From assembly GCF_000016745.1 (NCBI RefSeq), contig NC_009483.1, positions 3,840,001-3,872,000 of the forward strand: a stretch of DNA of 32,000 nucleotides, given 5' to 3'. Source of the stretch: Geotalea uraniireducens Rf4. GTDB lineage: Bacteria; Desulfobacterota; Desulfuromonadia; Geobacterales; Geobacteraceae. How positions within the stretch are numbered: position 1 is the first letter of the stretch; every line of letters begins with the position of its first letter. The notes beneath the pieces are model-generated. The model was not told where the DNA came from. It did no database searches and worked only from the letters and a program-made list of their open reading frames with translations. Of the stretch, positions 4,648 to 30,679 are shown piece by piece. Position numbers and translations under genes: made by a program.

Positions 4648-6186
4648 TCAAGACATCATGATATATCCCTGTTTCGACAACCACTCTATATCATCGAGGA
4701 ATCTTGTCGTATTACCGATTGCCGGTTTCAATGACGGTGCATATTGGGCAACCAGATTGGGAATATCTTTAAGTTTAAGACCATAGAATGGTCCAAATCC
4801 CGGAACGAGAACATATCCACTGGATTTTTGCGTTGAGACGGTTTTGCCATTAACTGCGACCGTATCCAGGATCAGATAGCGGCGAGACATTTCCATCCTT
4901 GTCTCAGAGAGGCTGAACTTGTGTTTTTCCGTTTTAAGTATATTCCCGTCATCGACTGCAGATGTGAAAACTCTTTCGATTTCAGAAATAGTGTAACCGT
5001 ACTCTGCCAGCGCCTTTACAGCTTGGGTCTTATCGCCATCGAACTTCAACAAAGCGTGTTCAAGTTCCAGATCTGTCAGAAAGCCTATCCGTTGAAGTTC
5101 ACGGCGCAACCTGATCGGCGCGCTTTTGATCTGGAAAAACGAATGGGTATTTTTCATTTGGAGGAGGGTTTTCAGATCGCCGTTAAGAGAAGCAAAATAA
5201 CCGGCGCCGTCAACATATTCAACAAACAAATGATTTACCGTAAAACGCCTTGCAGATGAGGTCTGATCTACGTTTTTATGACTGACACTGCCGGAATCTC
5301 CTGCATAAAACTGACATTGAACGAACAGTTTAGGCTGCCATCCGACAGTGTTGTAGGGAAGGATAAAATCGTATTTCCTAACTTTGGTCCGATCTGAGCT
5401 GTCGGCTTTTTTTCTTGCGGCAGCAGTATTAATCACTACATCATCATTATTGAAATCTACTCCTTGCTTCATACCCCAATCAGTCATCATTGTTCGCAAC
5501 AGCTGTTCGGGATTATGCCCCCCTGAAGCGGTAACCGATCCCCTAATCTTGAAAATAACCAGGGGCGATAATAGGGATTTCTCTTTGTTGTAAGGTTTTA
5601 GAGAATAGTAACAGTTACCGATGGCCCATAGTTGAGACAAGTAAGCGTCATCTGAAAGAGTAAATTCGAAAAACTCTCGTAACAGTTCAGTCTGTATGTC
5701 CGTGTACTTTTCTAAATTAGCGACAATTGTCATAAATTGTTCTGCTTTTATGACCCTGGGCCAATCCAGATAATTCAAGCATCCTTTACTCACAACAGGC
5801 ATACTGTTAAGTATATTTTTTTGTCGGATGTAAATCGGCAACTGGCACTTGCAGTTATTGTCGGATTTTCCGCTAACAAGATAGATAAGGTCTGATATCG
5901 ACGTGAGAAATTTCTTTGCCGATTTCTTATCGGAGTTAGCTATTTCCACCTCTACTGCTTCGGCTATTTTGCTTATGTCAGGCCGTTTTTTCAGCGAAAA
6001 TTTGTCGGTCGTCCTTCCCAAAACCTCAAAAATTCGCACAGCGCTCTCCATCTCCTTATTAAAGCGCTCCGTATCGCGAATTTCACCCAGCGTCGGCGTC
6101 AACCATATATCGAACTCCAACAAGGCATCTGTGCTGCTAATCGGTGTTAACGGCAATTTCATGATTTGCATCTCCACGGTTAGCAT
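4648..6186 (-). CDS. Uncharacterised 504-512 aa protein, probable nuclease/effector partner of the overlapping DNA methyltransferase
   Basis: This is a long clean ORF in the AT-rich island, on the same strand as the MTase, and its 5' end overlaps the MTase 3' end. Candidate starts are ATG 6186, 6171 and 6162. The last is 9 nt after GGAG, so it is preferred and gives 504 aa. The central segment KYDFILPYNTVGWQPKLFVQCQFYAGDSGSVSHKNVDQ resembles, from memory, the D..(E)x(N/K)FYSGSGSK core of DpnII/MboI-type PD-(D/E)xK endonucleases. I did not recognise any other family. Confidence 0.7.
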   Translation of the reverse strand: MLTVEMQIMKLPLTPISSTDALLEFDIWLTPTLGEIRDTERFNKEMESAVRIFEVLGRTTDKFSLKKRPDISKIAEAVEVEIANSDKKSAKKFLTSISDLIYLVSGKSDNNCKCQLPIYIRQKNILNSMPVVSKGCLNYLDWPRVIKAEQFMTIVANLEKYTDIQTELLREFFEFTLSDDAYLSQLWAIGNCYYSLKPYNKEKSLLSPLVIFKIRGSVTASGGHNPEQLLRTMMTDWGMKQGVDFNNDDVVINTAAARKKADSSDRTKVRKYDFILPYNTVGWQPKLFVQCQFYAGDSGSVSHKNVDQTSSARRFTVNHLFVEYVDGAGYFASLNGDLKTLLQMKNTHSFFQIKSAPIRLRRELQRIGFLTDLELEHALLKFDGDKTQAVKALAEYGYTISEIERVFTSAVDDGNILKTEKHKFSLSETRMEMSRRYLILDTVAVNGKTVSTQKSSGYVLVPGFGPFYGLKLKDIPNLVAQYAPSLKPAIGNTTRFLDDIEWLSKQGYIMMS

Positions 6187-7927
6187 GAATCCAGAATTTT
6201 TCGTCTATCTGTTTGGAAATTTTGTGCAGGCATTTGAATTGCGACGATTGAGCCAATACGTCATTAACCGTATGCAGGGTCAGTTCACCGTCTGTTTTGC
6301 CGTTTTCCACACTGTATTGAAAGGTAAACCACTCTACGGTTAATGCGTCAAGAATATCGCTGCTATGGGCAAAACCTTTCTTGTACACGATTTCATGCGT
6401 CAACCGCAAAGTTTCGTCAAAGACATTAAATAGCCCCTTGCTGAAAACATGCCTCTTAATGGAACCATCGGGTTTTCTGAAGTGGATAAGGACATCGCTT
6501 TTAGGGGCTTTGGTCATAACGCTTTCCGTTAGCGACGGTGCGCTCCTCCGTATCGGAGCAACCACAACCAACTCAAAGCCGCTGTCCTTACAGGCTGAAA
6601 TTAATGAGTTCCAAACTTTGATATCCTTGTTATTGAACGTCACGCTCATCCAGCGCCCCGGCTTTAGAAGACGATAAGCTTCGGCAAATACTTTTTTCAA
6701 CCCTGCTGCATAGTCGACTTCAGACTTGTTCCGGTAGGGATTAAAGGCAACTTCCGCATCGAGGTCTTCATGGAATCCCAGCCAGAGATTCCACAGCATA
6801 GACAGTTCGCCGTACTGAATCCCCTCGCCGCCGTAAGGTGGATCGGTAAGGATGTAATCCACGGAATTATCCTGAAGTGAGGCAAATTTCTTCCGCGAAT
6901 CATGGATCAGCACTTTACCCCAATTTGCGGCATTATCAGGCAGGACTTCTTTTAATTCATTTACCGCAGCTTTTGTCCGCACCAATCTATTTTTAAAATA
7001 ATGAAGCACATTAAGTTCCTGCCAATCGGCCGGTAGCCAGTAACAGTTAATTTTCCAGCTCGGGCCGCCTGCGTTTTCCTTATAATCCGCGATCATCCTC
7101 GACGATTGAGCGAGATTCGCTGTAAAGGTAAGCTTTAGAAACCTCTGACAAACTTCATCTTCCACCTGAGAAATCAATGACCAGAGCCGAGACAATACCA
7201 GCAGGTTACGGGGAGTAAACAGGTCGGAAAACTTTTCGATTTTCCGTCTTTTCAGCTTTTGCATCTCCCAGCCGTAATACATTTCCATATCCGGACAGGA
7301 AACTTCATACTGAGCTGATGCTTTCCGCAAATCCTCATCCGTAGGCAGATGTTCCAGTTTCTTTTTACATTTAGTGCAGTTATAACGCACTGAGACAAGT
7401 TCTTCTTTATGCCATCCAAACGATCTTGGTATAACTTCTGCTCCACACAAGATACAGCGGCTTCCGTAAATATCATATAAGTGAGGCAGTAACTCAGCCA
7501 TTATTGTAGCCGCAGCATGGTCAATCTCTTCACATTTATTGCCGGCTATCAATGTTTCGGTTAAATAAACGGCAAAAGGGTTAAGATCAAAACCGACAGC
7601 TTTTCTTTTTTCAATAATAGCTTCAACAACAGTAATACCACTGCCACAAAAGGGATCTAAGACCAATTCCCCTTCTTTTGAAAAAAATGAAATACACTTG
7701 CTAAATACATTTGCCGGTTTTTTCCCCCAGTATTTATGTAAATTATGCCTAGCTGGGAAGGTATCTGGAATAAGGATTCCAAGATGGGTATTGATGATGT
7801 CCGCATCGATGCTGGAGATATCAAGTTCCCCACTCTGTTGAGCATTCACATAAGACGACAAACTGCCCATGAGCGGTAACTCTTGCTGATCGTACCTGCT
7901 GTATTTCCTGCGGCTTGCTGTGGGCAT
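6137..7927 (-). CDS. DNA methyltransferase (DPPY catalytic motif, N6-adenine/N4-cytosine type) with an internal CxxC..CxxC zinc ribbon
   Basis: The ORF is 596 aa. The AdoMet motif I, LVLDPFCGSGITVVEA, is preceded by HKYWGKKP. Then comes CILC-x22-CTKC, and motif IV, DYILTDPPYGGEGIQYGELSMLWNLWL, lies about 260 aa downstream. So the order is motif I, then insert, then motif IV. This resembles a shortened COG1743/DUF1156-type Zn-ribbon methylase. No clear SD precedes ATG 7927. Confidence 0.85.
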   Translation of the reverse strand: MPTASRRKYSRYDQQELPLMGSLSSYVNAQQSGELDISSIDADIINTHLGILIPDTFPARHNLHKYWGKKPANVFSKCISFFSKEGELVLDPFCGSGITVVEAIIEKRKAVGFDLNPFAVYLTETLIAGNKCEEIDHAAATIMAELLPHLYDIYGSRCILCGAEVIPRSFGWHKEELVSVRYNCTKCKKKLEHLPTDEDLRKASAQYEVSCPDMEMYYGWEMQKLKRRKIEKFSDLFTPRNLLVLSRLWSLISQVEDEVCQRFLKLTFTANLAQSSRMIADYKENAGGPSWKINCYWLPADWQELNVLHYFKNRLVRTKAAVNELKEVLPDNAANWGKVLIHDSRKKFASLQDNSVDYILTDPPYGGEGIQYGELSMLWNLWLGFHEDLDAEVAFNPYRNKSEVDYAAGLKKVFAEAYRLLKPGRWMSVTFNNKDIKVWNSLISACKDSGFELVVVAPIRRSAPSLTESVMTKAPKSDVLIHFRKPDGSIKRHVFSKGLFNVFDETLRLTHEIVYKKGFAHSSDILDALTVEWFTFQYSVENGKTDGELTLHTVNDVLAQSSQFKCLHKISKQIDEKFWIHANRGDANHEIAVNTD

Positions 7928-12773: not shown

Positions 12774-12849
12774 TCGGCGGTCGGCAGTCGGCGGTCGATG
12801 GTTAAATTGGTCAACCACCGACCACCGCCCATCAACCACCGACCGCCTT
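12774..12849. repeat. Inverted pair of tandem heptamer arrays (CCGCCGA family) between trpA and accD, overlapping the trpA stop
   Basis: The left arm is TCGGCGG TCGGCAG TCGGCGG TCGATGG (12774..12801). The spacer is ttaaattggtcaa. The right arm is CCACCGA CCACCGC CCATCAA CCACCGA CCGCCTT (12815..12849). The arms are imperfectly complementary (for example GGTCGATGGTT with AACCACCGACC), so they could form a long hairpin. The trpA stop TGA (12832..12834) and its last 5 codons lie inside the right arm. Confidence 0.8.
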
Positions 12850-13635
12850 CACCCCTGCCTTCAATGCTGCGACAAATCCGCCTAGCCGCTCTCGGAGTTC
12901 ATCCCCCCGGAATTCTTCGAAAAGCTTTACCAGCGCACTTCCTACAACCACGCCATCGGCAACGGCTGCCACCCGGCCGGCCTGCACCGGGTCGGAAATG
13001 CCGAAACCGACCACAAGCGGCAAGGTTACATGCTCCCGGATCTTTTTCACATCGGGAAAAACCGTATCCGCAACACTCGTCCGCGCACCGGTAACGCCGG
13101 TAACCGAAACATAGTAGATAAAACCACTGCCAAGATTTGCCACTTTCCTGATCCTGGCTTCATCGGATGTGGGGGTCAGCAGGAATATCACGTCTAACCC
13201 TTCCCGATCCGCTGCCGCCTTGAATTCTTCGGCTTCTTCAGGAGGCAGGTCGACCAGCAGCACGCCATCAACCCCCGCCGACACGGCATCGGCTACAAAC
13301 CGCTCTATGCCATAAAGAAAGACCGGGTTGTAATACCCCATCAGAATAAGGGGAATCTCCGTCTGTTGCCGAACAGATTTTACCAAGGTTAAAATTTTAG
13401 GCAGTGTCGTACCGGCGCAGAGGGCGCGCTCCGAAGAAAGCTGGATAGTCGGTCCGTCAGCCATCGGATCGGAAAAAGGTACACCCAGTTCGATCAGATC
13501 GGCGCCGGACTTTTCCAGTTCCAGGATCAGTTTCTCCGTTGTTTCCAGATCAGGATCGCCAGCGGTAATAAACGTGACAAGCGCCTTCTCATTCTGCTTC
13601 GCCAGGTTGGCAAATGTTGTTGCAATTCTGCTCAT
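12832..13635 (-). CDS. trpA: Tryptophan synthase alpha chain
   Basis: The sequence is [65 protein letters not shown]. The track ORF starts at 13671. I prefer ATG 13635 (M13), which is preceded by GGGGAG, 25 nt after the MCP stop. Confidence 0.93.
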
Positions 13636-13660
13636 CAATATAACTCCCCGATCATCCGAC

Positions 13661-15871
13661 TCACCCTTCAATCTTGAACATGCCCATCTCGTTGCGAAGA
13701 ATCTCTATCTGACGGAACAAGCCGGAAACAGCTTCATCCATCGCCCCTGTCGCTTCAAGGTTGATATGGGTTGATTGCTGAATATCCTCAACAGCGACCA
13801 CAATCTGCTCGCTTCCGCGATTTTGCTCGTCACAGGCTCGCTTGATCTGTTGGATCATATCTGTAATATTTTCTGTGGACTGGGCGATAAAATTACCGAC
13901 ATTGCTCTGTTCACGGGTCGAAGACCTCACCTGGGTCGTGAGGGTCTTCATTTTCTCCACCGCGGTCATAATGAGCTCGCTCCCCTGTCCCTGCTCACGG
14001 GTAGCCTTGGCGATCTGACCGACCATTTCGGAGACCTGCTCCATGGCATCACGGATCATCTGACTTCCCCTCGCCTGCTCGACGGTAGCGCGGGCTATTT
14101 CTTCCACCTGCTCCGTTGCCTTCTTCACACCCGATACGATCTTGTTCAACGCCTCGCCCGATTTCTGCGACAACAGTTCACCGTCTGCAATGCTTTTTTC
14201 CGCCTGGTCAATGGCATTAACCGCCCGGTGAGTTTCGTCCTGTACCGCCTTTATAACCATCGCAATCTCGCGGGTGGAGCTGCTGGTGCGCTCGGCAAGC
14301 TCCTTTATCTCATCTGCGACAACGGCAAAACCCTTGCCGTGCTCACCGGCCTGGGCAGCAATAATAGCCGCATTCAGCGCCAGGAGGTTGGTCTGCTCGG
14401 CAACCTCGTCGATTACCGAAAGGATTGTCCCGATATCATTGGCCCTGCCGGAGAGGGTGTCAATAACTTCATAGGTGATGCGCGACGAACGTTTAATTTC
14501 ATTGATGCCGGCGATGGTAGCCTCCACCGCTTCTTTGCCGGTCTCGGCATCCTTGCGGACCGCATCGGATATGGCGGCGGTCTCCATGGCATTTTTCTCC
14601 ACCTGCTTGATGCTGCTGTCCATCTCCATGACCGATGATGCGGTGGTGGTCGAAGCATCCAGGAGGCTGACGACGCCGTTACCCACCTGCTTGATGGAAG
14701 CAGCCATCTGGAGGATGGATGAGCTCACCTCATCGACAGAGTGCGACAGGGTTTCAACATTCTGGGCCACCTCTTCAACGCTGGCTGCCATCTCCAGAAT
14801 CGATGAGGAACTTTCCGAAGCGGATAGGGAAAGACTGTCAACACCCTGGGAAACCCCTTTGACTGATGCGTTGATCTGGCTCACCGCCGCCGAGGTATTG
14901 TTGACGCTCTCTGCCTGCAATTTGGCCGTATTCACGACTTTTTGCGAAGATTCGGTAATAGTGCCGGATAAATGGGTCAATTCAGCCGCGGACTTGTTGA
15001 CATTGCCGACCATTCCGGACAATTTCTCCACCATTACATTGAAATCGCTCCCCAACTTGCCAAGCTCGTCCCCTGAGTCGATTTCAAGCTTGGCGGTAAG
15101 GTCCCCCTCCGCGCCGTTATCCAGGGCTCTGGCCATTCTATTGATGCGGTTGACGATGTTCTTCGTGGTCTTGAGCCCCAATAAAAGCCCAAGCAGGACG
15201 GCGGCGATGATTACCACAACAAAGGCAATTCCCGCAGAACTCTGAATTTCGCGGACCTGCTTGTCCGCCTTGGTCATCTGGATACCCACCTCAACAAGCA
15301 GGTCGTCGGCATCGGCTTTGGCTTTTTCTATGGCAGGATTTATGTCGTCTTCCGTGAGACGATGCAATTTTTCATCGGCAAGGGCAGCCATGGCCGCCTG
15401 ATCGACGACGCCGGCTTTGAGCCCTTTCAGCAACGCTTCCTTGCGGGCGAGAAGCTCGTCGGCAATCTTCTCGACCTCTTCCCAACTGGCAAGGGCCGCC
15501 TGGGTCCGTTTTTCGATAACGCTCCCATGCTGCGCAGGCTTGATCCCCAGCTTCGCATTGCCTTTCAACATGATGTTGCACTGGCTTCTGAAGAGATCCC
15601 GCTTCATCCGGTAATCTTCGGCATACTCTTCAAATTTTTCCATTTCGGCACGCACCAGCGCCGCCTGCATGAGACTGACATGACAATATTTCTGCGTTAC
15701 CCCCATGAGCAGAACCAGTTTCTGCTGGCTGGCCAGATTCTGCATGATGTTCTGAATCTGGTCGCCGACCCGCCTCATGCTCCAGGAGCCGAAAGCGCCG
15801 GTTATGGCGACAATCAGGGCCATTATCATAAAAGAACCGACAAGACGATGACTAAGTTTCAAGTTTTTCAC
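13661..15871 (-). CDS. Methyl-accepting chemotaxis protein with an expanded cytoplasmic signalling domain
   Basis: The ORF is 736 aa with a GTG start after AGAGGA. It has two TM segments flanking a ~190-aa periplasmic helical sensor, then HAMP, then a ~445-aa signalling domain with the conserved hairpin tip [41 protein letters not shown]. An internal triplicated segment ([14 protein letters not shown] / [14 protein letters not shown] / [13 protein letters not shown]) is consistent with the 40+24H class described for Geobacter MCPs (from memory). Confidence 0.92.
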
Positions 15872-15947
15872 AACAAGTCCTCTGTTGGTTTATCGGCAGT
15901 TGTTGCCGCCATCTCTACAGGGTGAATTTCTTAACCCATTGGTCGAA

Positions 15948-16307
15948 TCAATGTTCAGCCTCGTTCAGGAGATAGTTCATAAGATCGACGGTCGCCTTGA
16001 CCTCCGGCTTGCTCATGTTCGAATCCGGTTTACGCAACATCTTGATGCCGTACGCTTTGGTGGCGCTCCGGTCAAAGAGCTGGCCGGAGATGGGCGCAAT
16101 CCCCGTCTGGATTGCTACTATGGTTCTTTCCAGGGTGTGGCATTTGACGCACTTGACCCTCATTATCTCGTAATTGGCTTTCATGGCAGGAGGGAATGCG
16201 GACGGATCCAGGCGCATGTTGTCGCCCTTGCCGATAACCTTGATACCGGCATGGGCAGCAGTACTGAACAAACAGAGCAGAACAAGAAGAATAACGGTTT
16301 TTTCCAT
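15948..16307 (-). CDS. Small secreted monohaem c-type cytochrome (119 aa precursor)
   Basis: It has the signal peptide MEKTVILLVLLCLFSTAAHA and a single CVKCH. The GGAGGA RBS is 8 nt upstream of the ATG. The gene starts 34 nt after the stop of the cytochrome-porin gene. Confidence 0.8.
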   Translation of the reverse strand: MEKTVILLVLLCLFSTAAHAGIKVIGKGDNMRLDPSAFPPAMKANYEIMRVKCVKCHTLERTIVAIQTGIAPISGQLFDRSATKAYGIKMLRKPDSNMSKPEVKATVDLMNYLLNEAEH

Positions 16308-16341
16308 TGCAAAAATCCTCCACTGTGTTGTTTGTTTACGA

Positions 16342-17694
16342 TCAGAAACTATACGTCACACCAAGCAGGGTAATTCTCGAAATCACTGCCGGGGCATCTT
16401 CATACCGGTATTCAAGGGTGACCTTCACATTCTGCAAAGGGGTATACGCAATGGCGGGGATATAACGACGCACGATGCCGACACCGTCATCCTGGTGCTC
16501 ATAGCGAAACAGACCGACGGCATTAACAGGCGAACCGAGGTAGTATTCCGCCTCGGAAGCCAGCACGACGGAATCCCTTTCAAGGGGAACCGTGGCGAAA
16601 TCCGGGTTGTCGTCCCGCCCTTTTACGCCGCTCAATTTGACTCTCAAACGTTTATACTGGAGGTCCATGTCGCCACCGGCGCGATAAAATCTGTTTTTGG
16701 TGAAGGTATCGGTGTCGTTGATGGTATTGCGACCGAAATAACCATATGTGCCGAACGTCACCGACAGATAGTCCCACACGCTGTCGCTGTCGAGGTCGAC
16801 CGCCGGTTCATTGCCCAGTAAATCGGAACCGCCTACCTTCACCGAAACATGACCATAACCTTCTTTTGCGTTTTGCCCCTTCCGGTCCACAATTCCGCCG
16901 GCGACAAACAGCCTTTTCCAGAGGACGACGTTGGCTTCAAGCGCATCCTGGCTTGATTCCAGGGTGAACGGCGAGCTCCCGACCCGGTACGACAGGGTAG
17001 CCAGGGAGGAGGCGGTCGTAACCTTGTTGTTTTTCTTCCAGAGGCTGAGCTTCGGTTCAAACCTGCCGAATTTCAGGTTTATGGGTGTATCCAGGATGTG
17101 GCGCCACTGCAGAAACAGTTCATGCAGGTTATTGGTGTCGGTGGTGCTGTCCGCATGCGTCGTCAACAGGTATGAGGCAAAAAATCCGAACTTGTCACGG
17201 AAGGCGCCGCCGGCTTGAAAAGCGAAAGTCCGGGTTGAAAAATCGAATTTGTCGCCATCAGCCGCATGCTCGTCATAGACGATGTTTTGCGTTGCCCGGA
17301 AGGAGAGGGGGAGCTGTTCTGGTATGCCGGCAAGCCAGAGTCCCTCGTTTCCTTTATTCTTCGGTTCCTGTGCCTGGTCGTTCTCAACCTTGGAAGTGGC
17401 TGCCTGGGCCTTTAATTTATCGAGCAATTCCGGGTCGCCTTCACCGGCAATGGCAGCGGCAGCAGCTGGAGATGCCGGAGCTTTCGCTTCGGAAGGCTTG
17501 ACCAGCGGAACATAGCTGTTTTTTTGGAAAGCATCCCCGTACTCGTTAAGTTCCGGATAAATTGTATGGCAGGTAGAGCATTCGGTTTTATGCTGACGAC
17601 TAAAAGCAGGAATTGCGTGCGCCTTACCGGCGCTCGTAAGCGTGAAAGCGCCGATCAGAAGCAAAACAAGCTTGATCGTGAATCGGCTTTGCAT
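16342..17694 (-). CDS. Fused monohaem cytochrome c / beta-barrel outer-membrane protein (Cyc2-like architecture)
   Basis: The track ORF starts at GTG 17712. I prefer ATG 17694, 6 nt after AGGAGG. The signal peptide is MQSRFTIKLVLLLIGAFTLTSAGKAHA. CSTCH (nt 17566..17580) begins at mature residue 12. It is followed by an Ala/Pro/Lys-rich linker and then ~340 aa with about 16 amphipathic beta-strand-like segments by eye. The C-terminus ...ITLLGVTYSF fits the BAM beta-signal. Confidence 0.85.
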   Translation of the reverse strand: MQSRFTIKLVLLLIGAFTLTSAGKAHAIPAFSRQHKTECSTCHTIYPELNEYGDAFQKNSYVPLVKPSEAKAPASPAAAAAIAGEGDPELLDKLKAQAATSKVENDQAQEPKNKGNEGLWLAGIPEQLPLSFRATQNIVYDEHAADGDKFDFSTRTFAFQAGGAFRDKFGFFASYLLTTHADSTTDTNNLHELFLQWRHILDTPINLKFGRFEPKLSLWKKNNKVTTASSLATLSYRVGSSPFTLESSQDALEANVVLWKRLFVAGGIVDRKGQNAKEGYGHVSVKVGGSDLLGNEPAVDLDSDSVWDYLSVTFGTYGYFGRNTINDTDTFTKNRFYRAGGDMDLQYKRLRVKLSGVKGRDDNPDFATVPLERDSVVLASEAEYYLGSPVNAVGLFRYEHQDDGVGIVRRYIPAIAYTPLQNVKVTLEYRYEDAPAVISRITLLGVTYSF

Positions 17695-17968
17695 GGATCC
17701 CCTCCTCTGCACATTTCTCAGTTATTCATCAAATTTGCATCGAATACGACGCTAAACGATCATCAATACATTTATGAAAATAATTACATATATTTAGTGC
17801 TTAACACGGTAAAATACTGGCTAGTATTACAATATTGAGCATATGAAGTCAACTTAACATAAATAAGTGCAAGATAATATTAGTAAGCCGATGAGCTTTC
17901 AGATATTTTTTTATACATTTTTGACGACATAAATGGTATAAGGCTCCTAATTAAAGGAGGGTGAGGGG
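17695..17968. promoter_or_regulatory. AT-rich divergent control region between the cytochrome-porin operon and the decahaem cytochrome gene
   Basis: This is 274 nt that looks AT-rich by eye (no count was made). There is an extended -10-like TGGTATAAG at 17934..17942, about 12 nt before the AGGAGG RBS (17955..17960) of the + strand gene. There is a palindrome AATACT-ggct-AGTATT at 17813..17828. On the minus strand there is TTGACT-17-TAATAC at about 17824..17852. None of these is individually decisive. Confidence 0.4.
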
Positions 17969-19750
17969 ATGAAAAATGGATTTTTCACATCATTAATTTT
18001 ACTTTCTCTGCTGATTGCAGTCATGACAGGTTGCGGCAGTGACAATTCAGGAAGCCAGACTGCACTTTCAACCTTTGCTGCCTCAGAAGCATGCATACGC
18101 TGTCATACGACAACTAATAATATTTCTCCGGTTACCGGCATGAACATTGTCGAGGAATGGAAGCTTTCCACCCACAATACCAGCAACGGAGCGAGTTGCA
18201 TTGACTGCCATGGGGAAGGAAACGGTCACCCGAACAGCTGCGGGGTCTGCCATGGCGGCTCTTCACCCGTATCAGCCGGATTCCATAACCCGGAACAGGC
18301 CGGTCTCTGTAACAATTGCCACGGCCCGAATCACCCGGACGACGTTATGATCCTCAATTCGCCGCAGCATTTCGGCAACATGACCGCTAGTTTGCCCAAC
18401 ATCAAGTATCGTGCATCCTTTGTCAGCTCACAATATGTGAGCAATTGCCGCAAATGCCATAATCCCCACAATCCCAGCAGCGCCATCGAGATCGCCCGTC
18501 AGTGGGCTGACAGCGGGCACGGCAACACTCTTGCCGGGGCAAGGACAGCTTACGACTTCAAGACACGCGGCACCTATGAACCAGTAAACCTGTCATTCCA
18601 AAATAATTGTGTTCGTTGTCACACCACGACCGGCTTCATCAACTTTGTCGCTTCAGGCTACAGTGACCAGAGACCGTTCGCAGGTCCACAGTACCCCGTA
18701 GTCCTGTATCCGTCAGTCTCAACCGACAAGACCAAAGAAGTTACCGGATGCAATGCCTGCCACGACGACGGCAAAGGGAACGCCTATAGCTATAAACTTA
18801 GGGCGCTTCCCCAGGTGCGGATCTATTACAACTACTCTTCGGCGAACACCTCACCAACGGTTAAGCTAAACAATATGCCGGTATATTTTCCCGACGCAGG
18901 CCCGTCCAACATATGCATCAGCTGTCATGCAGGGCGCGGCATCGGGCGAATGATCACTGTTGCAGCTGCCAACTTTTTCAACTTTAGTACAAGCACAAGC
19001 ATAAGCGCCCATGATTTCGCCGGCGCCGGAAATCTGTTCCAGCAGAGCGGCTATGAATATAGCGGACGGAGCTATACCTCATCCGCCTTCCTCCATGACG
19101 AGATCGGCTTCAACAACACCAACAGCACCGGCAGCCGCGGTCCCTGCATCACCTGCCACATGAAGAGTGACGAGTCGCACTCTTTTCTACCCGTGACATT
19201 CGATAATCAGCAGGCATCCGATCCGTCTGCCGTAGCAATCGCCGGCATCATCAGCCGTACCTGCTCCAAGTGCCACAACGGCGCCATCCAACCGGCATGG
19301 ACTGCGCAAACCCTTCAGGCGAGGCGAGCGGGATTTCAAGCTGCGCTAGCGATACTTAATGGAGTTCTAGCTCAAAAAAGAGGCAGCACGAAGACCTGGG
19401 AGAAACTTGACGGAGTTATCATAAAAGGAACAGGCCCCAACACCATGGGTGCCAACTTTAATTATGGATTGCTTAAAAATGATTGGGGCGCTTACGCCCA
19501 CAACGACCTCTATGCCAAGCGACTGATCTATGACTCACTTGACTGGCTTTACGACCGCGACTTGGTCTCGAAGACCAACACCGGTGGGTACGCGACTGAC
19601 GTGGAGGCAGCGATCAACGGTGTCACCACGGCAAAAAATCCGTGGAACAGTGCAGTAATATATTCGAGTCCACAGCTGGATGGACCGACCGGCCTGAAAG
19701 CTTTGGCTATCAACTACTTGCTCGGCGGGCCGGGAGGTAACCGTCCCTAG
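17969..19750 (+). CDS. Decahaem c-type cytochrome lipoprotein
   Basis: The ORF is 593 aa. Its lipoprotein signal is MKNGFFTSLILLSLLIAVMTGC. It has ten CxxCH motifs: CIRCH, CIDCH, CGVCH, CNNCH, CRKCH, CVRCH, CNACH, CISCH, CITCH and CSKCH. The last ~150 aa are haem-free. The RBS is strong. Confidence 0.9.
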   Translation: MKNGFFTSLILLSLLIAVMTGCGSDNSGSQTALSTFAASEACIRCHTTTNNISPVTGMNIVEEWKLSTHNTSNGASCIDCHGEGNGHPNSCGVCHGGSSPVSAGFHNPEQAGLCNNCHGPNHPDDVMILNSPQHFGNMTASLPNIKYRASFVSSQYVSNCRKCHNPHNPSSAIEIARQWADSGHGNTLAGARTAYDFKTRGTYEPVNLSFQNNCVRCHTTTGFINFVASGYSDQRPFAGPQYPVVLYPSVSTDKTKEVTGCNACHDDGKGNAYSYKLRALPQVRIYYNYSSANTSPTVKLNNMPVYFPDAGPSNICISCHAGRGIGRMITVAAANFFNFSTSTSISAHDFAGAGNLFQQSGYEYSGRSYTSSAFLHDEIGFNNTNSTGSRGPCITCHMKSDESHSFLPVTFDNQQASDPSAVAIAGIISRTCSKCHNGAIQPAWTAQTLQARRAGFQAALAILNGVLAQKRGSTKTWEKLDGVIIKGTGPNTMGANFNYGLLKNDWGAYAHNDLYAKRLIYDSLDWLYDRDLVSKTNTGGYATDVEAAINGVTTAKNPWNSAVIYSSPQLDGPTGLKALAINYLLGGPGGNRP

Positions 19751-23378: not shown

Positions 23379-24572
23379 CTATTCCAGCTTTACCCCCATT
23401 GCCTCGGCAACCGTATGAATATCCTTGTCCCCCCGGCCGGAGAGACAGACAATGATTGTCTTGTCCTTAGAGAGAGTCGGCGCCATTTTCAGCACATGGG
23501 CAATGGCATGGGATGACTCCAGTGCCGGCAGTATCCCCTCTTCCCGGGTCAATACCCTGAACCCTTCCAGCGCCTCCTCATCGGTTACCGATACATAATC
23601 GGCACGGCCTGATTCCTTCAGCCATGCATGTTCAGGACCGACGCCGGGATAGTCGAGACCGGCGGAAATGGAATGGGCGTGGGCAATCTGGCCGAACTCA
23701 TCCTGAAGCAGATAGGTCTTGTTGCCGTGAAGCACTCCGACGCTCCCGGCACAGAGAGGCGCTGCGTGCTTACCGGAGGAGATTCCATAACCGGCCGCCT
23801 CGACCCCGACCATTTTCACGTCCTTATCATTCATGAATGGGTGGAAGAGACCGAGGGCGTTGCTCCCGCCGCCTACGGCAGCCACCAGATAATCAGGAAG
23901 CCGCCCCTCGATTTTTTTGTGCTGCGCCTTTGCCTCCCGGCCGATAATCGACTGGAAATCGCGAACCATCAGGGGATAAGGATGTGGACCGGCGACGGTG
24001 CCGATGACATAGAACGTGTTGCCGACATGGGTTACCCAGTTGCGCAGCGCCTCGTTCATGGCGTCCTTGAGGGTGGCGGTGCCCGCTGTCACGGGAGTAA
24101 CCTTGGCACCGAGGAGTTTCATTCGAAAAACGTTCAGCGACTGCCGGTGGATATCCTCCTCGCCCATGAACACCTCGCACTCCATGTCGAAAAGAGCGGC
24201 AATGGTGGCTGTGGCAACACCGTGCTGACCGGCGCCGGTTTCGGCTATCACCCGTTTTTTACCCATCCGCTTGGCCAGGAGTCCCTGGCCGATGGTGTTG
24301 TTCACCTTGTGGGCACCGGTATGATTCAGGTCTTCACGTTTCAGGTAAATCTTTGCCCCGCCGAGCTTTTTGCTGAGTTTTTCCGCAAAGTAGAGGGGAT
24401 TGGGTCGCCCCACATACTGGCGCATATAATAGGCAAATTCTTCCTTGAACTCTTTATCGTTTTTGTAATGGTTGTAAGCCTTCTCCAGCTCGAACAGCGC
24501 CGGCATCAATGTTTCCGATACGTATCTGCCGCCGAACTGGCCGAAATGCCCTTGCTTATCGGGTAATTTCAC
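23379..24572 (-). CDS. trpB: Tryptophan synthase beta chain
   Basis: The ORF is 397 aa with a GTG start 5 nt after GGAGG. The sequence is [26 protein letters not shown]...[16 protein letters not shown] (PLP lysine motif). Confidence 0.95.
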
Positions 24573-24773: not shown

Positions 24774-27700
24774 CTAAACATCATCAGCAGCGGGTGCCAC
24801 CAGGAGCTTTTTCCGTGAGCGCACCTTTGCCAGCAGCACATCCATGTAGTAGTAGACAACCGGCGTGATGTAGAGGGTCAGCAACTGCGAGGTGAGCAAC
24901 CCGCCGACAACGGCCAGACCCAGTGGCTGACGCGACTCTCCTCCGGCACCTAAACCCATGGCGATTGGCAGCGTTCCCATCAGGGCAGCCATGGTCGTCA
25001 TCATAATCGGCCGAAAACGTACCAGAGCCCCTTCATAAATGGCATCAAGCGGCCGTTTCCCGTCCTTCCTCTCGGCTTCCAGGGCAAAGTCGATCATCAT
25101 GATGGCGTTCTTTTTGACAATGCCGAGCAGCATGATTATCCCGACAAATCCATAGATATTAAGATCGCAGTGAAAGATCATCAGGGTGATCAGTGCCCCG
25201 AAACCGGCGGCCGGCAGTCCGGACAGGATGGTGATCGGGTGAATATAGCTCTCATAGAGAACGCCGAGCACAATGTAGATGACGAAGACGGCCATCACCA
25301 GCAAGATCAGCAGGCCGTTGAATGAGGATTGGAATGCCTGCGCGGTCCCCTGAAAACTGGTACTCACGGTTTGAGGGAGAGCTGTGCGGGCAAGCTCGTC
25401 AACGAGAGTCATTGCATCGCCAAGGGCTAGCCCGGGGCGGAGATTGAACGAGATCGTCACCGCCGGGAGTTGTCCCAGGTGGTTGACCGTCAGCGGGCCG
25501 ATGGTTTTGGTGATGGCAGCTATGGTATCGAGCGGTACAAGCTGTCCGGATTTGCTATGGATGTAAAGCATGCCCAGAGCCGCCGGGTCTCCCTGGTAGA
25601 GCGGATCAAGTTCGAGAATAACCTGATACTGGTTGGTCGTGGCAAATATGGAGGAAACCTGGCGTGAACCGTAGGCATAGGAAAGGGCGTCTTCCACCTG
25701 CATCACGGAGAGCCCCAGGCTGGCCACCTTATCCCGGTTGATTTCCACATGCACCTGCGGATTACTGATCTGCAGGTCGCTCGTTACATCCAGCAACTCG
25801 GGAAGCTCACGCAGCTTTGCCTCAAAGTCACTGGAGGCACGGTACAGTTCATCCGTGTTCTGACCTTGCAGGGTAAACTGGTACTGGCTTTTGGAGGAGC
25901 TGCCCCCTATCTGGATCGAGGGGATATTTTTCAGGAATGTTCGGATACCCGGGACTTTGGCGAGCTTTGGGCGAAGTTCCTGAATGATCTCATCTGCGGA
26001 GAGTTTTCGCTCACTGCGCGGCTTGAGACGGATAAAAAAGCGGCCGGTGTTGCTCGCCCCGCTGCTGCCCATGGATGACATGAATCCGTCGATATTCGGA
26101 TCTTTGGCGATGATGGCAGCGAGTGCTTCCTGGTGAAGCTTCATCTCCGCGAAGGATGTCCCTTGGGCCGCCTCGGTGTCGGCGTTTAGACGTCCGGTGT
26201 CTTCAGTCGGCAGGAATCCCATGGGAATTCTGGTAAACAACCAGCCGGTGACCAGCGTGACAAGTATCGTCAAGACCATGGTTGTCCGACGAAAGCGCAG
26301 GACCTGTTGCAGTGAGCGCTCGTAAAGATTGAGCAAACGGTCGAAGAAGCGTTCCATGAAGAGGTACAGGCGTCCGTGTCGCTCTGCTGCCGGCGGCTTC
26401 AGAAATCGACTGCAAAGCATCGGGGTCAGGGTCAGGGAGACGAAACAGGAGACCAGAATTGCCACGCTGATCGTTATGGCGAATTCGTGCAGGAGACGGC
26501 CAAGTATCCCCCCCATGAACAGTACCGGAATAAAAACCGCCACCAGCGATATGGTCATCGAAATGATGGTAAAGCCGATCTCCTTAGAGCCCTTGAAAGC
26601 AGCCTCCATCGCACTCTCACCCTTTTCCATGTGACGGACGATGTTTTCCAGCATGACTATGGCATCATCCACGACGAAGCCGACCGCCAGGGTCAGGGCC
26701 ATCATGGATATGTTATTGATGGAGAATCCCAGCATATGCATGGCGGAGAACGTACCGACAATTGACATCGGCACTGCCAATGAGGGGATGATGGTGGCGG
26801 ACAAGTTGCGCAGAAAGAGGAAAATCACCATGATGACCAGGCCGATCGTCAAACAGAGGGTGAACTTGACGTCGTGCATCGATTCACGGATCATGTTGGA
26901 CCGGTCAAAAAGAACACTCAGTTCGACTGAGGCCGGCATCTGCGAGCGGAAAGTCGGCAGAAGCTTCTTCACGCTGTCCACCACCTCGATGGTGTTGGTT
27001 CCCGGCTGGCGTTGGACGGCCAGGACTATGGCGCGCGTGTTGTTGTACCAGCTTGCCGTCTTGGTGTTCTCTACGCTGTCAAGGACCTGCCCGACTTCCT
27101 CAAGGCGGATCGGCGAGCCGTCCCGGTAGGCCACCACCATCGAGCGGAAGGATGCCGCATTGAACATCTGTCCATTGGCTTCGATGGTGAACGCTTGCTT
27201 TTTCCCGTCCAGCATCCCGGTCGGCATGTTGACGTTCGCATCGCCGATCGCCGTCGCCACTTCGTCGATGCCGATCTGCCGGGAGGCCAGGGCTTTGGGA
27301 TCGAGTTGGGCACGCACGGCATACTTCTGCGAACCGTAAACCGACACCTGGGCCACGCCGCTGATCGTAGAGATACGTTGCGAGATGAGGGTCTGCGCAT
27401 ACTCGTCAACCGCGGAAAGAGGCAATGTGGGAGAGCTGAGCGCCAGGTAAAGGATCGGCTGATCGGCAGGATTCACCTTCCGGAAAGACGGCGGCGACGT
27501 CATGTTCGCCGGTAACTGGCGAATAGCAAGTGAGATCGCCGCCTGCACGTCCTGAGCGGCCGCATCAATATCGCGGTCAAGGTTGAACTGGATCGTGATC
27601 CTGGTCGAGCCGATGCCATTCGTTGAAGTCATCGAGTCGACGCCGGCAATGGTCGAGAACTGCTTCTCCAGCGGTGTGGCGACCGCCGATGCCATGGTGT

Positions 27701-27872
27701 CTGGATTGGCGCCAGGGAGGTTGGCGCTGACCTGGATGGTCGGGTAGTCAACTTTCGGCAGGTCGTTCACCGGAAGCAAGCGGTACGATGCCACACCGAA
27801 GATGAAGATGGCGATCATGATCAACGAGGTCATGATCGGCCGGCGAACGAAAATCTCGGCGATATTGATCAC
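24774..27872 (-). CDS. RND efflux permease (HAE1 family, MdtB/MdtC-like)
   Basis: The ORF is 1032 aa. Its GTG start overlaps the adaptor gene stop (GTGA). The sequence MINIAEIFVRRPIMTSLIMIAIFIFGVASYRLLPVNDLPKVDYPTIQVSANLPGANPDTMASAVATPLEKQF is the canonical AcrB/MdtC N-terminus. Confidence 0.95.
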   Translation of the reverse strand: MINIAEIFVRRPIMTSLIMIAIFIFGVASYRLLPVNDLPKVDYPTIQVSANLPGANPDTMASAVATPLEKQFSTIAGVDSMTSTNGIGSTRITIQFNLDRDIDAAAQDVQAAISLAIRQLPANMTSPPSFRKVNPADQPILYLALSSPTLPLSAVDEYAQTLISQRISTISGVAQVSVYGSQKYAVRAQLDPKALASRQIGIDEVATAIGDANVNMPTGMLDGKKQAFTIEANGQMFNAASFRSMVVAYRDGSPIRLEEVGQVLDSVENTKTASWYNNTRAIVLAVQRQPGTNTIEVVDSVKKLLPTFRSQMPASVELSVLFDRSNMIRESMHDVKFTLCLTIGLVIMVIFLFLRNLSATIIPSLAVPMSIVGTFSAMHMLGFSINNISMMALTLAVGFVVDDAIVMLENIVRHMEKGESAMEAAFKGSKEIGFTIISMTISLVAVFIPVLFMGGILGRLLHEFAITISVAILVSCFVSLTLTPMLCSRFLKPPAAERHGRLYLFMERFFDRLLNLYERSLQQVLRFRRTTMVLTILVTLVTGWLFTRIPMGFLPTEDTGRLNADTEAAQGTSFAEMKLHQEALAAIIAKDPNIDGFMSSMGSSGASNTGRFFIRLKPRSERKLSADEIIQELRPKLAKVPGIRTFLKNIPSIQIGGSSSKSQYQFTLQGQNTDELYRASSDFEAKLRELPELLDVTSDLQISNPQVHVEINRDKVASLGLSVMQVEDALSYAYGSRQVSSIFATTNQYQVILELDPLYQGDPAALGMLYIHSKSGQLVPLDTIAAITKTIGPLTVNHLGQLPAVTISFNLRPGLALGDAMTLVDELARTALPQTVSTSFQGTAQAFQSSFNGLLILLVMAVFVIYIVLGVLYESYIHPITILSGLPAAGFGALITLMIFHCDLNIYGFVGIIMLLGIVKKNAIMMIDFALEAERKDGKRPLDAIYEGALVRFRPIMMTTMAALMGTLPIAMGLGAGGESRQPLGLAVVGGLLTSQLLTLYITPVVYYYMDVLLAKVRSRKKLLVAPAADDV

Positions 27873-29004: not shown

Positions 29005-29252
29005 TTCCACCCTCATTTTTGTGTTATTGATGACGGGTATATCCTTATAAGAATGCAAGCGGATGGATGCCTTGCAGTGTCGAAAAACCCGCTCTTTCCC
29101 TTCAACAGCTATAATCTAGCAAAAAAAATATGGATAAAATATGAAATAAATGAGGAAATGCGGATAACGGAGATATTTACAGGTAACGTTTATGCTATAA
29201 GGGAAGCAACTTGATGCGGGGCATCAATTATCTATTTCTTGAGAGGAATGCG

Positions 29253-30679
29253 GTGAAGATCAAGATTAAATATCGGCTCTTTCTGGCGATGCTGGCCGCC
29301 ACCGCAGCTGCGGTCGTCTGTATGTTTATCATCATGCAGTGGAGTATCGACCGGGGCTTTCTCCGGTACGTCAATACGCTCGATCAGGAACGGCTCGTAC
29401 GGCTGGCCGGTGCATTGGAACAGAGCTTTGCCGAAAAAGGGAACTGGGATACGCTGCGCACTGATCCGCTCAAGCGCTCCCTGCTCATTGAATCTACCCA
29501 CCCCAATTACCGCCTTGAGCCGCAGGGAAAACTCCCCGCGGATGGTAGCACCAAGCCATCTCAAGACGCCCCACGGATCATCCATCAGTTTGAAATGCGC
29601 ATCATCCTGCAGGATGCGGGGCATCACCTTGTATTTGGCCCAATGCACACCGGAGAACGAGTGGAGTTCAAACCGATCATTCATAGGCAAAAGATCGTGG
29701 GCTACCTGGGGCTGCTGCCGAGAAGCAGCCTCACCGATGCCATCCAGCTGCACTTCGTGCAACAGCAAAAACTGACCTTGGCCATGATTGCAGTGGCCAT
29801 CCTCCTCGTCTCAACCGGCCTATCCCTCCCACTGGCAAGCCGACTGGTCCATCCTATCAAGAACCTGGCAGCCGCTACTCATCGCCTTGCCTCAGGGGAG
29901 TTCGATACGCGCGTTTCCGTCAGCTCTTCAGATGAGCTCGGTCATCTTGCCAGGGATTTCAACTCGCTGGCCCTCTCTCTGGAGAAGAGCGAGCAGTCAC
30001 GCCGTGACTGGGTTGCTGATATCTCCCACGAACTACGGACACCGCTGACGATCCTGCGCGGCGAGATTGAAGCGATCCAGGACGGAATCCGTCAGAGCAC
30101 CCCAGAAGCCATCGACTCCCTCCACTGCGAAGTTATGCGGCTGAACCGGATGGTGGACGACCTCTACCAGCTCTCCCTTTCAGATGTCGGCGCCCTGACG
30201 TACCGCAAAGAGGAACTGGATCTTGATGCCATCCTCAACCGGGCGCTCGACTCATTCCAGGCCGAATTCACTCAAAAACAAATCTCTCTGCGGACCGAGA
30301 TCCAACCCGGCGCGGAGTTCCCGCTCTTTGCAGATCCCGAACGGCTGCAGCAACTTTTCGACAACCTGCTGGAAAACGCTCTGAACTACACCGATCCGGG
30401 GGGAGAACTCTTCGTCCGTCTGGCTCGCCGTGACACTTTGGCGACGGTACATTTTCAGGACAGCCCCCCGGTGTGACCAAGGAGGATCTGGCACGCCTCT
30501 TCGACCGGCTCTATCGAGTCGAGGGATCGCGAAACCGCACTTCAAGCGGTGCCGGGCTGGGACTGGCAATCTGCAAAAACATCGCTAAAGCACACGAAGG
30601 AACCATTGAAGCGCTACCGTCGCCATTGGGAGGGGTATGGATCAAGGTAGAACTCCCGTTAATGGAGAGAGGAGTATGA
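29253..30679 (+). pseudogene. Sensor histidine kinase (BaeS-like), reading frame broken at a C6 run
   Basis: I prefer GTG 29253 after GAGAGGA (VKIKIKYRLFLAML...). It has a TM segment, a periplasmic loop with RGFLRYVNTLDQERL (BaeS-like), HAMP, and the H-box ADISHELRTPLT. The frame ends at ...HFQDSPPV* (30474..30476). The G1/G2 part (TKEDLARLFDRLYRVEGSRNR...GAGLGLAICKNIAKAHEG...) continues in the +1 frame as track ORF 30473..30679. The C run is at 30464..30469. One extra C would restore DSPPGVTKEDL. Confidence 0.82.

Follow-up and report, generated by a model that had tools for sequence, protein, structure and literature searches.

Systems described for electron exchange at the outer membrane follow several designs. 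The Cyc2 family is defined by a signal peptide, a single CXXCH with AXPXFAR[Q/K][T/Y] upstream of it and PXL four residues downstream, a minimum length of 365 amino acids (aa) and a 16-strand porin (PMC8406198); the pattern used to screen for it is PXFAR[Q/K][T/Y], and the motif varies between clusters (Keffer et al. 2021, PMC8406198). Cyc2 and Cyt572 of the Fe(II) oxidisers Acidithiobacillus ferrooxidans, Leptospirillum and Mariprofundus PV-1 are of this kind, and in A. ferrooxidans the gene right after that of the haem porin encodes Cyc1, a small soluble periplasmic dihaem cytochrome c4. The porin-cytochrome conduits of Geobacter (OmaB-OmbB-OmcB, ExtABCD, ExtEFG and ExtHIJKL) are encoded by adjacent genes for a periplasmic cytochrome, a barrel and a multihaem lipoprotein, and in Shewanella MtrCAB a decahaem lipoprotein (MtrC/OmcA/MtrF) is genetically linked to an outer-membrane barrel. 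Here, we analysed a 32,000-nucleotide (nt) stretch of Geotalea uraniireducens Rf4 genomic DNA (contig NC_009483.1, positions 3,840,001 to 3,872,000; hereafter the window), in which three genes for haem proteins lie together: a Cyc2-like haem porin (A), a small monohaem cytochrome (B) and a decahaem lipoprotein (C). We see an even chance that this trio forms a three-component outer-membrane electron-exchange module of Geobacteraceae/Desulfuromonadales, which would be a hybrid of the Cyc2 and porin-cytochrome designs.

All three open reading frames (ORFs), which a preliminary description had picked out from the letters of the window, were found exactly where it had placed them (Table 1). A matches the Geotalea (formerly Geobacter) uraniireducens protein ABQ27442/WP_011940105 at 100% identity, a GGAGGGG of the ribosome-binding-site type precedes its ATG, and 34 nt separate its stop codon from the start of B. 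The features of the trio are no chance pattern: homologues of each protein number in the hundreds, and every haem motif is conserved.

The Sec signal, single CSTCH, barrel of about 16 strands and GVTYSF terminus that had been proposed for A were all borne out by the sequence and by a barrel in an AlphaFold2 model. The hydrophobic N-terminus ending in AHA/IP is kept across the alignment of 22 homologues. The only CxxCH is the CSTCH at residues 39-43, in which C39, C42 and H43 are invariant, and the PEL motif follows in the series H43-TIY-P47-E-L49, with L49 invariant and P47 nearly so. The isoelectric point (pI) is 6.0 for the haem domain and 4.7 for the linker, which spans about 65 residues and is longer than the matching segment in the distant relatives at loci L084 and L085.

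Compared with the published definition of Cyc2, A carries a signal peptide, one N-terminal CXXCH, PXL at +4, a length of 450 aa and an OprO/OprP-like barrel. Its upstream motif, AIPAFSRQH, agrees with seven of the nine Cyc2 positions in identical register and misses the strict pattern (A to S and [T/Y] to H). A therefore falls outside the strict pattern filter of the published Cyc2 tree, because these two positions differ. With Cyc2/Cyt572, A has in common the signal peptide, the single N-terminal CxxCH, the motif register, the PxL, the length of about 450 aa and the approximately 16 strands, whereas it differs in reading PAFSRQH, in its long acidic linker, and in its neighbours, a monohaem partner that is conserved and a decahaem lipoprotein, both absent beside distant Cyc2-like genes. 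Furthermore, in contrast to the Fe(II) oxidisers that carry Cyc2/Cyt572, the hosts of A are Fe(III) reducers, and A is known from sequence.

The AlphaFold2 model of A was built on the 22-sequence alignment and is of modest confidence, with a mean predicted local distance difference test (pLDDT) score of 60 and values of 70-84 in the C-terminal half. It places a beta-barrel with 17 DSSP strand elements over residues ~130-450, so that a barrel is indeed predicted, as had been expected. A Foldseek search with this model returned OprP and OprO, both 16-strand porins, at ranks 1-3, ahead of general 16-strand porins (OprP 2o4v, E 1.2e-11; OprO 4rjw next; TM-scores 0.51-0.56 to OprP/OprO). These are the same two proteins reported as templates for Cyc2 (PMC8406198). 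At the sequence level, the match to Pfam Porin_O_P is weak (E 0.004, under the gathering cut-off), PDB sequence and profile searches gave weak OprO matches only and no solved Cyc2 relative, and no NCBIfam family was assigned.

Searching 1.84 billion representative proteins with a profile of the A family (E <= 1e-3) yielded 2840 relatives. Among the best 150 of these, 109 are full length, and all but one of the 109 (108/109) are single-haem proteins. The AxPxFxRxx motif, with the same three-residue spacing before the Cys, is present in 102 of these 109, and the canonical PXFAR[QK][TY] in 59, mostly as PAFARKY. A cluster look-up of the distant relatives was mostly uninformative, as the members are largely unnamed metagenome proteins. 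The earlier view of A as a Cyc2-like haem porin is upheld: the architecture and the register of the motif agree, the barrel resembles OprO/OprP, and the profile shows homology to Cyc2-type proteins with the canonical motif. Judged by its sequence, A is a divergent member of the Cyc2 superfamily; we call it Cyc2-like and assert neither strict membership nor an Fe(II) oxidase function.

For B, the 34-nt spacing, the Sec signal (ending AHA/G), the single CVKCH and a mature form of about 100 aa were all as first described, the mature protein counting 99 aa. Invariant residues are C53, C56, H57, M90 and M98, the two Met lying inside YGIKMLRKPxSxM. Because the CxxCH and both M90 and M98 are invariant, the sequence suggests that B is a class-I-type cytochrome with His/Met ligation. 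B is basic (pI 9.4), and its positive charge would complement the acidic haem domain and linker of A, a correspondence that is only suggestive. B is the most conserved member of the trio, with 75-97% identity among the 120 homologues listed, and by its sequence it evolves much more slowly than its porin partner. These 120 homologues come mostly from metagenome contigs and from Geotalea, Geomonas and Citrifermentans; among the matches listed, B constitutes an orphan family confined to Desulfuromonadales-type loci. A locus from a metagenome-assembled genome (MAG) of Desulfobulbia (L081, 1418-3133) encodes an A with 34% and a B with 54% identity to the window proteins, with no C nearby.

The preliminary description had further likened B to Cyc1, which did not hold. 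B, too, appears to be a small, soluble c-type cytochrome of the periplasm whose gene comes right after one for a haem porin, but it is monohaem where Cyc1 is dihaem, belongs to its own orphan family and shows no sequence similarity to Cyc1 that could be detected. Neither Pfam nor NCBIfam has a family for B, and the best matches in PDB sequence and profile searches were to single-domain class I cytochromes c (E ~0.1-0.8), with no similarity to cytochrome c4/Cyc1. The resemblance between B and Cyc1 is one of role only.

C carries the lipobox VMTGC and ten CxxCH motifs, as had been claimed; there are exactly ten, all of them conserved, the last at residues 432-436. The residue at position +2 of the lipobox is Gly, not Asp. 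Eight more invariant His, H511 among them, are available as distal ligands. The C-terminal tail, which had been described as haem-free and of about 150 aa, does lack CxxCH over 157 aa, but because it contains the invariant His511 it is probably part of the haem-domain fold; it is helical and forms the highest-pLDDT part of the model. C scores 66 bits (E 3.6e-18) with Pfam Mtrc-MtrF_II-IV_dom (PF22113), whose cut-off is 30, and the match is best over residues 89-269. PDB searches with C (phmmer and the family profile) did not find MtrC, MtrF, OmcA or UndA and gave weak NrfA-like matches, and in NCBIfam NrfH and HmcA were below threshold only. The haem-free, low-confidence model of C gave nothing significant in Foldseek (best OcwA, E 1.3), so that no fold was assigned. 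It is mainly helical with one small sheet, and the four-domain plan of MtrC, with its barrel domains I and III, was not seen, which at this low confidence is a soft negative. The hematite-binding motif [ST][hydrophobic][ST]P[ST] is not in C and occurs in 4 of 65 homologues. Given the PF22113 match, and since no MtrC, MtrF, OmcA or UndA was recovered by sequence, profile or fold search, C is, as far as sequence can tell, an MtrC-module-containing decahaem lipoprotein of its own family. Two C homologues are labelled 'OmcB' by automated annotation. A Desulfuromonadia cytochrome survey has a 57-member 'MtrC/OmcA-like' cluster; if C is one of its members, the monohaem nature of the porin would explain why the link was overlooked. 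In Geotalea daltonii FRC-32 (L082, 2281-6368), C is represented by a tandem pair of genes for decahaem lipoproteins (688 and 578 aa, each with ten CxxCH), divergent from A-B; here, C is duplicated in place.

The conservation of the trio was examined by scanning one genome per species with the A-family alignment, which gave 80 loci. All are from Geobacteraceae/Desulfuromonadales except the one from a Desulfobulbia MAG, and none is from G. sulfurreducens. In 75 of the 80 loci, the next gene downstream of A, on the same strand, is B, the exceptions being four contig ends and one local rearrangement, and a C homologue adjoins A in 75/80. The trio is hence syntenic in approximately 75 of 80 relatives, as the preliminary description required, and it comes in two gene orders. 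In the divergent layout (33 loci, as in the window), C and A-B face apart, a gene for a methyl-accepting chemotaxis protein (MCP) lies downstream of A-B in 29/33, usually followed by trpA, and an ABC-F gene lies beyond C in some. In the co-directional layout (42 loci), C, A and B follow one another tightly packed (median longest-ORF gaps of 26 nt from C to A and 55 nt from A to B) behind a DUF4388 gene and a membrane-protein gene, downstream of maeB; an MCP gene is present in 1/42. Within each of the A, B and C families, the sequences group by layout (nearest-neighbour agreement 98-100%). We considered and set aside the notion that the two layouts are paralogues: isolate genomes have one locus each, and only two MAGs have both. 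The layouts may instead be lineage-specific rearrangements. In both cases, the three genes travelled together while their surroundings changed.

Pairwise distances between the families correlate at r=0.80 for A and B and at r=0.44 for A and C. A-B occurs without C at the Desulfobulbia locus and on one Geobacteraceae contig (L070), and Cyc2-like genes of a gammaproteobacterial MAG and of a Planctomycetota MAG have neither B nor C nearby. Because distant Cyc2-like loci lack both partners and the Desulfobulbia locus has A-B without C, the distribution looks like that of an A-B core to which C is a Desulfuromonadales addition.

Table 1 Features of the haem-protein locus and their positions in the window.
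Feature	Position	Strand	Description
Gene A	16342..17694	-	Cyc2-like fused monohaem cytochrome-porin; 450 aa from ATG; ABQ27442/WP_011940105
A signal peptide	17617..17694	-	residues 1-26, cleavage after AHA (AHA/IP); sequence and AlphaFold2 helix at residues 2-20
A haem domain	17509..17616	-	residues 27-62, AIPAFSRQH-KTE-CSTCH-TIY-PEL; most conserved block of the family
A linker	17314..17508	-	residues 63-127, rich in Ala/Pro/Glu/Lys; low pLDDT; length and sequence variable among homologues
A beta-barrel	16345..17313	-	residues 128-450, ends ...LLGVTYSF; DSSP strands on AlphaFold2 model
Gene B	15948..16307	-	predicted periplasmic monohaem cytochrome; 119 aa precursor, 99 aa mature; ABQ27441
Gene C	17969..19750	+	decahaem lipoprotein cytochrome; 593 aa; ABQ27443
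C lipobox Cys22 codon (VMTG/C)	18032..18034	+	Cys22 invariant, G21/G23 nearly invariant in 28 homologues
C C-terminal helical region without CxxCH	19277..19747	+	residues 437-593; invariant H511, N512, Y515
A/C divergent intergenic region	17695..17968	.	274 nt, 33% G+C against ~54% in flanks
Candidate promoter facing A	17823..17852	-	TTGACT, spacer, TG-extended -10 (TGTAATACT); consensus scan
MCP gene	13661..15871	-	MCPsignal and HAMP domains by Pfam; 76 nt downstream of B

The hybrid reading is drawn from the match between the three predicted locations of the proteins (periplasm, outer-membrane barrel and outer-membrane lipid anchor) and the three roles of the Pcc/Ext and Mtr conduits. The trio has the same division of roles as the Geobacter conduits, which belong to the same bacterial family, but its porin, where theirs is haem-free, is haem-bearing and small (~16 strands) and its periplasmic partner has one haem, not about eight. 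Similarly, C is, like its Shewanella counterparts, a decahaem lipoprotein with a domain II/IV match that is linked to an outer-membrane barrel, but the barrel of A is far smaller than the 26-strand MtrB, and no MtrA-like decahaem is encoded at the locus. No named ext/pcc family in Pfam or NCBIfam matched the trio, which is set apart from Oma/Omb/Omc/Ext by its architecture and by these two libraries; the match to an already characterised ext/pcc cluster that might have undone the preliminary description was thus absent from both.

From these features we infer the subcellular locations of A, B and C, the physical contact between them and the electron flow. In the hybrid module, A would provide an OprO/OprP-like barrel of about 16 strands with an N-terminal c-haem domain held on its long acidic linker at or in the periplasmic mouth. 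B, as a soluble basic periplasmic cytochrome, would dock on the acidic haem domain of A and connect it with the electron pool of the periplasm and inner membrane. C, anchored in the outer membrane and probably mostly bis-His ligated, would offer redox partners that are extracellular or bulky a multihaem wire or a surface for contact. The porin-fused haem and the monohaem shuttle would then replace the usual periplasmic multihaem cytochrome of a conduit. Because a His/Met monohaem B hints at a fairly high potential, inward flow (oxidation of Fe(II) or of a cathode, with electron uptake) appears at least as plausible as outward metal reduction. A more daring version, which we hold to be rather doubtful, would make the trio a new conduit class, in which the porin haem gates between a docked B and a surface C that dips into the outer vestibule, giving a minimal B-A-C relay, possibly inward.

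Several observations weigh against the module. First, lipoproteins face the periplasm by default, and a surface exposure of C would be argued by analogy with OmcB and MtrC. Second, C co-varies only weakly with A, and part of the synteny is vertical inheritance rather than independent retention, since the two layouts are mostly found in different genera. Third, the haem domain of A is unmodelled, and the mean pLDDT is 60 for A and 64 for C. Fourth, none of six accessions for A, B and C was found in the searchable literature. Finally, a one-haem 16-strand barrel cannot bridge the membrane alone, and Cyc2 is held to be limited to dissolved Fe2+ entering the pore (PMC8406198); because a single haem in such a barrel cannot span the membrane, a through-barrel B-A-C relay would need C to reach into the barrel from outside, and otherwise C would act beside A.

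The strongest alternative is that A and B alone make up a Cyc2-type oxidoreductase for dissolved Fe2+/Fe3+ or for small redox species entering the pore, with B carrying the electrons to or from the periplasmic pool. C would then be a separate cytochrome, in the outer membrane or outside the cell, that is only co-located and perhaps co-regulated, iron redox metabolism being the business of both. We consider this possible, though on balance unlikely. The linkage and co-variation of A with B (r=0.80) are much stronger than those of A with C (r=0.44), A-B stands without C in L081 and L070, and C is transcribed separately from A-B in the window; the published Cyc2 model, too, is of a dissolved-Fe2+ oxidase without need for a surface cytochrome (PMC8406198). 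Yet C has stayed beside A in 75/80 loci despite a change of context and an inversion, in 42 loci it is found immediately upstream in an operon-like array, and in G. daltonii its gene was duplicated in place and not elsewhere.

Far less probable is an adjacency without functional meaning, in which three secreted haem proteins would be neighbours through shared gene-order ancestry in one family. The three genes shifted together between two contexts that are unrelated, and their flanks stayed behind, which is hard to reconcile with such an origin, as are the operon-like spacing, the A-B co-variation and the fit of the predicted locations to the three roles of known conduits; these outweigh the facts that the loci are those of one order plus one Desulfobulbia MAG and that the flanking trpA, ABC-F and maeB are conserved too.

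A sensory module, in which A-B would report the extracellular Fe(II) or redox state to the downstream MCP and so guide taxis toward iron minerals, seems to us more improbable still. This idea takes its appeal from the position of the MCP gene just past B (76 nt, with no terminator-like site between), from its presence in 29/33 divergent loci and from a PBP-like gene (PBP, periplasmic binding protein) that some loci have between B and the MCP gene. It is difficult to maintain, however, when 41 of 42 co-directional loci have no MCP gene, so that it is not part of a conserved core, when the MCP is without CxxCH and its N-terminus gives only weak, sub-cut-off Pfam matches to four-helix-bundle sensors (4HB_MCP_1, TarH), and when the housekeeping gene trpA is equally conserved at that position, pointing to inherited gene order. 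Least credible of all is that A is mainly an anion/phosphate-type diffusion porin of the OprO/OprP class whose haem is regulatory or protective (e.g., in Fe2+ detoxification, a role proposed for Cyc2; PMC8446621) and not respiratory, because, for all that its closest folds are OprP/OprO, that it matches Porin_O_P weakly and that PstS-like PBP genes lie nearby in few loci, such PBP genes are found in a minority of loci only, the dedicated cytochrome partner B and the decahaem neighbour are conserved, and no part of A is more conserved than its haem domain.

The divergent control region noted at the outset between A and C was found to be AT-rich as claimed (Table 1). It contains conserved blocks among four Geotalea loci, and the block GTTGACTT...CAATATTGTAATA, which holds the candidate promoter of A, is invariant in all four intergenic regions. 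An Rfam scan of the whole window and of this region for c-di-GMP or other riboswitches found no family. On the other side of A-B, a terminator-like site was looked for in the gap between B and the MCP gene and none was seen; the MCP gene is possibly co-transcribed with A-B. Its membership of the module is doubtful, and we do not count it as a member because it is missing from the co-directional layout. Long antisense ORFs at 15885-16373 (+), 16174-16821 (+) and 13775-15245 (+) overlap B, A and the MCP gene; they were rejected as genes, being shadows of the real ones. In about ten loci, naive longest-ORF calling chose a 162-aa antisense ORF instead of B.

In the window, the trio is flanked by the MCP gene and trpA downstream of B and by an ABC-F ATPase gene beyond C, with accD, folC and lptD further out. 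The trpA gene (12832-13671) overlaps the end of the MCP ORF by 11 nt in longest-ORF calls and lies ~10 kb from a PALP-domain gene (23379-24572) that may encode a tryptophan synthase beta-like enzyme; between the two are the trio, the MCP and ABC-F genes, a LEA_2 lipoprotein gene and an SLT transglycosylase gene. A stretch at 4648-7927, between an rmlD-type gene and lptD, has a G+C content of 40-47% against ~57% in its flanks and encodes a DNA methylase (N6_N4_Mtase, 596 aa) and a 512-aa protein without a Pfam family. It looks like an inserted restriction-modification-like islet, because at the syntenic G. daltonii locus an epimerase gene directly follows lptD. A gene for a 1032-aa AcrB-type resistance-nodulation-division efflux pump with a membrane-fusion-like ORF downstream (24774-27872) and a HAMP/HisKA sensor kinase gene (29211-30476) appear unrelated to the trio.

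We also noted recurrent neighbours at other loci. In L053 (2020-3762) and about 30 further co-directional loci (e.g., L027, L032 and L068), C-A-B is always preceded by two genes, at gaps of 26-36 nt. The one encodes a 321-aa DUF4388 (PATAN-like) protein, the other a multi-pass membrane protein of 249 aa that is very highly conserved, has His71 and His84 as invariant residues and matches no Pfam family. This membrane protein may belong to the system as its inner-membrane part, or it may simply be a conserved neighbour. In L005, L006, L014, L024, L026 and L074, a PstS-like PBP gene (PBP_like_2, ~252 aa) lies between B and the MCP gene, and L014 has, on the other side of C, a second B-like cytochrome gene and a second PBP gene.

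The preliminary description had also not recognised a described conduit type in this combination. In the literature on Cyc2 and Geobacter taxa we found no description of the trio, and the only mentions were those of FeGenie and McAllister et al. FeGenie reports a 'cluster 3 cyc2' in G. sulfurreducens, G. bemidjiensis and G. metallireducens, and McAllister et al. had a Geobacter sp. FRC-32 sequence among their Cyc2 queries. The FRC-32 locus is orthologous to that of the window, and its A gene may have been that query. Cyc2 homologues in Geobacter have hence already been reported bioinformatically, and it is the conserved trio only that is new. The top homologues listed for the trio proteins include none from G. 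sulfurreducens.

In aquifers and paddy soils, the dominant Geobacteraceae are Geotalea, Geomonas, Citrifermentans and Oryzomonas, whose electron-transfer machinery is mostly inferred from G. sulfurreducens. The trio bears on how monohaem Cyc2 proteins hand electrons on and whether they are restricted to dissolved Fe2+, as well as on why Fe(III) reducers carry a marker gene of Fe(II) oxidation. With three genes and twelve haems, the module is small and would be easy to delete and to express in another host. If a B-A-C relay exists, solids or electrodes would come within reach of a Cyc2-type protein for electron exchange, contrary to the current Cyc2 model, and if that relay runs inward, it might allow environmental Geobacteraceae to oxidise Fe(II) minerals or cathodes. 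Metagenomic surveys score cyc2 as iron-oxidation potential; if the copies described here work in a reversible or reductive conduit, cyc2-based survey counts would need reinterpreting.

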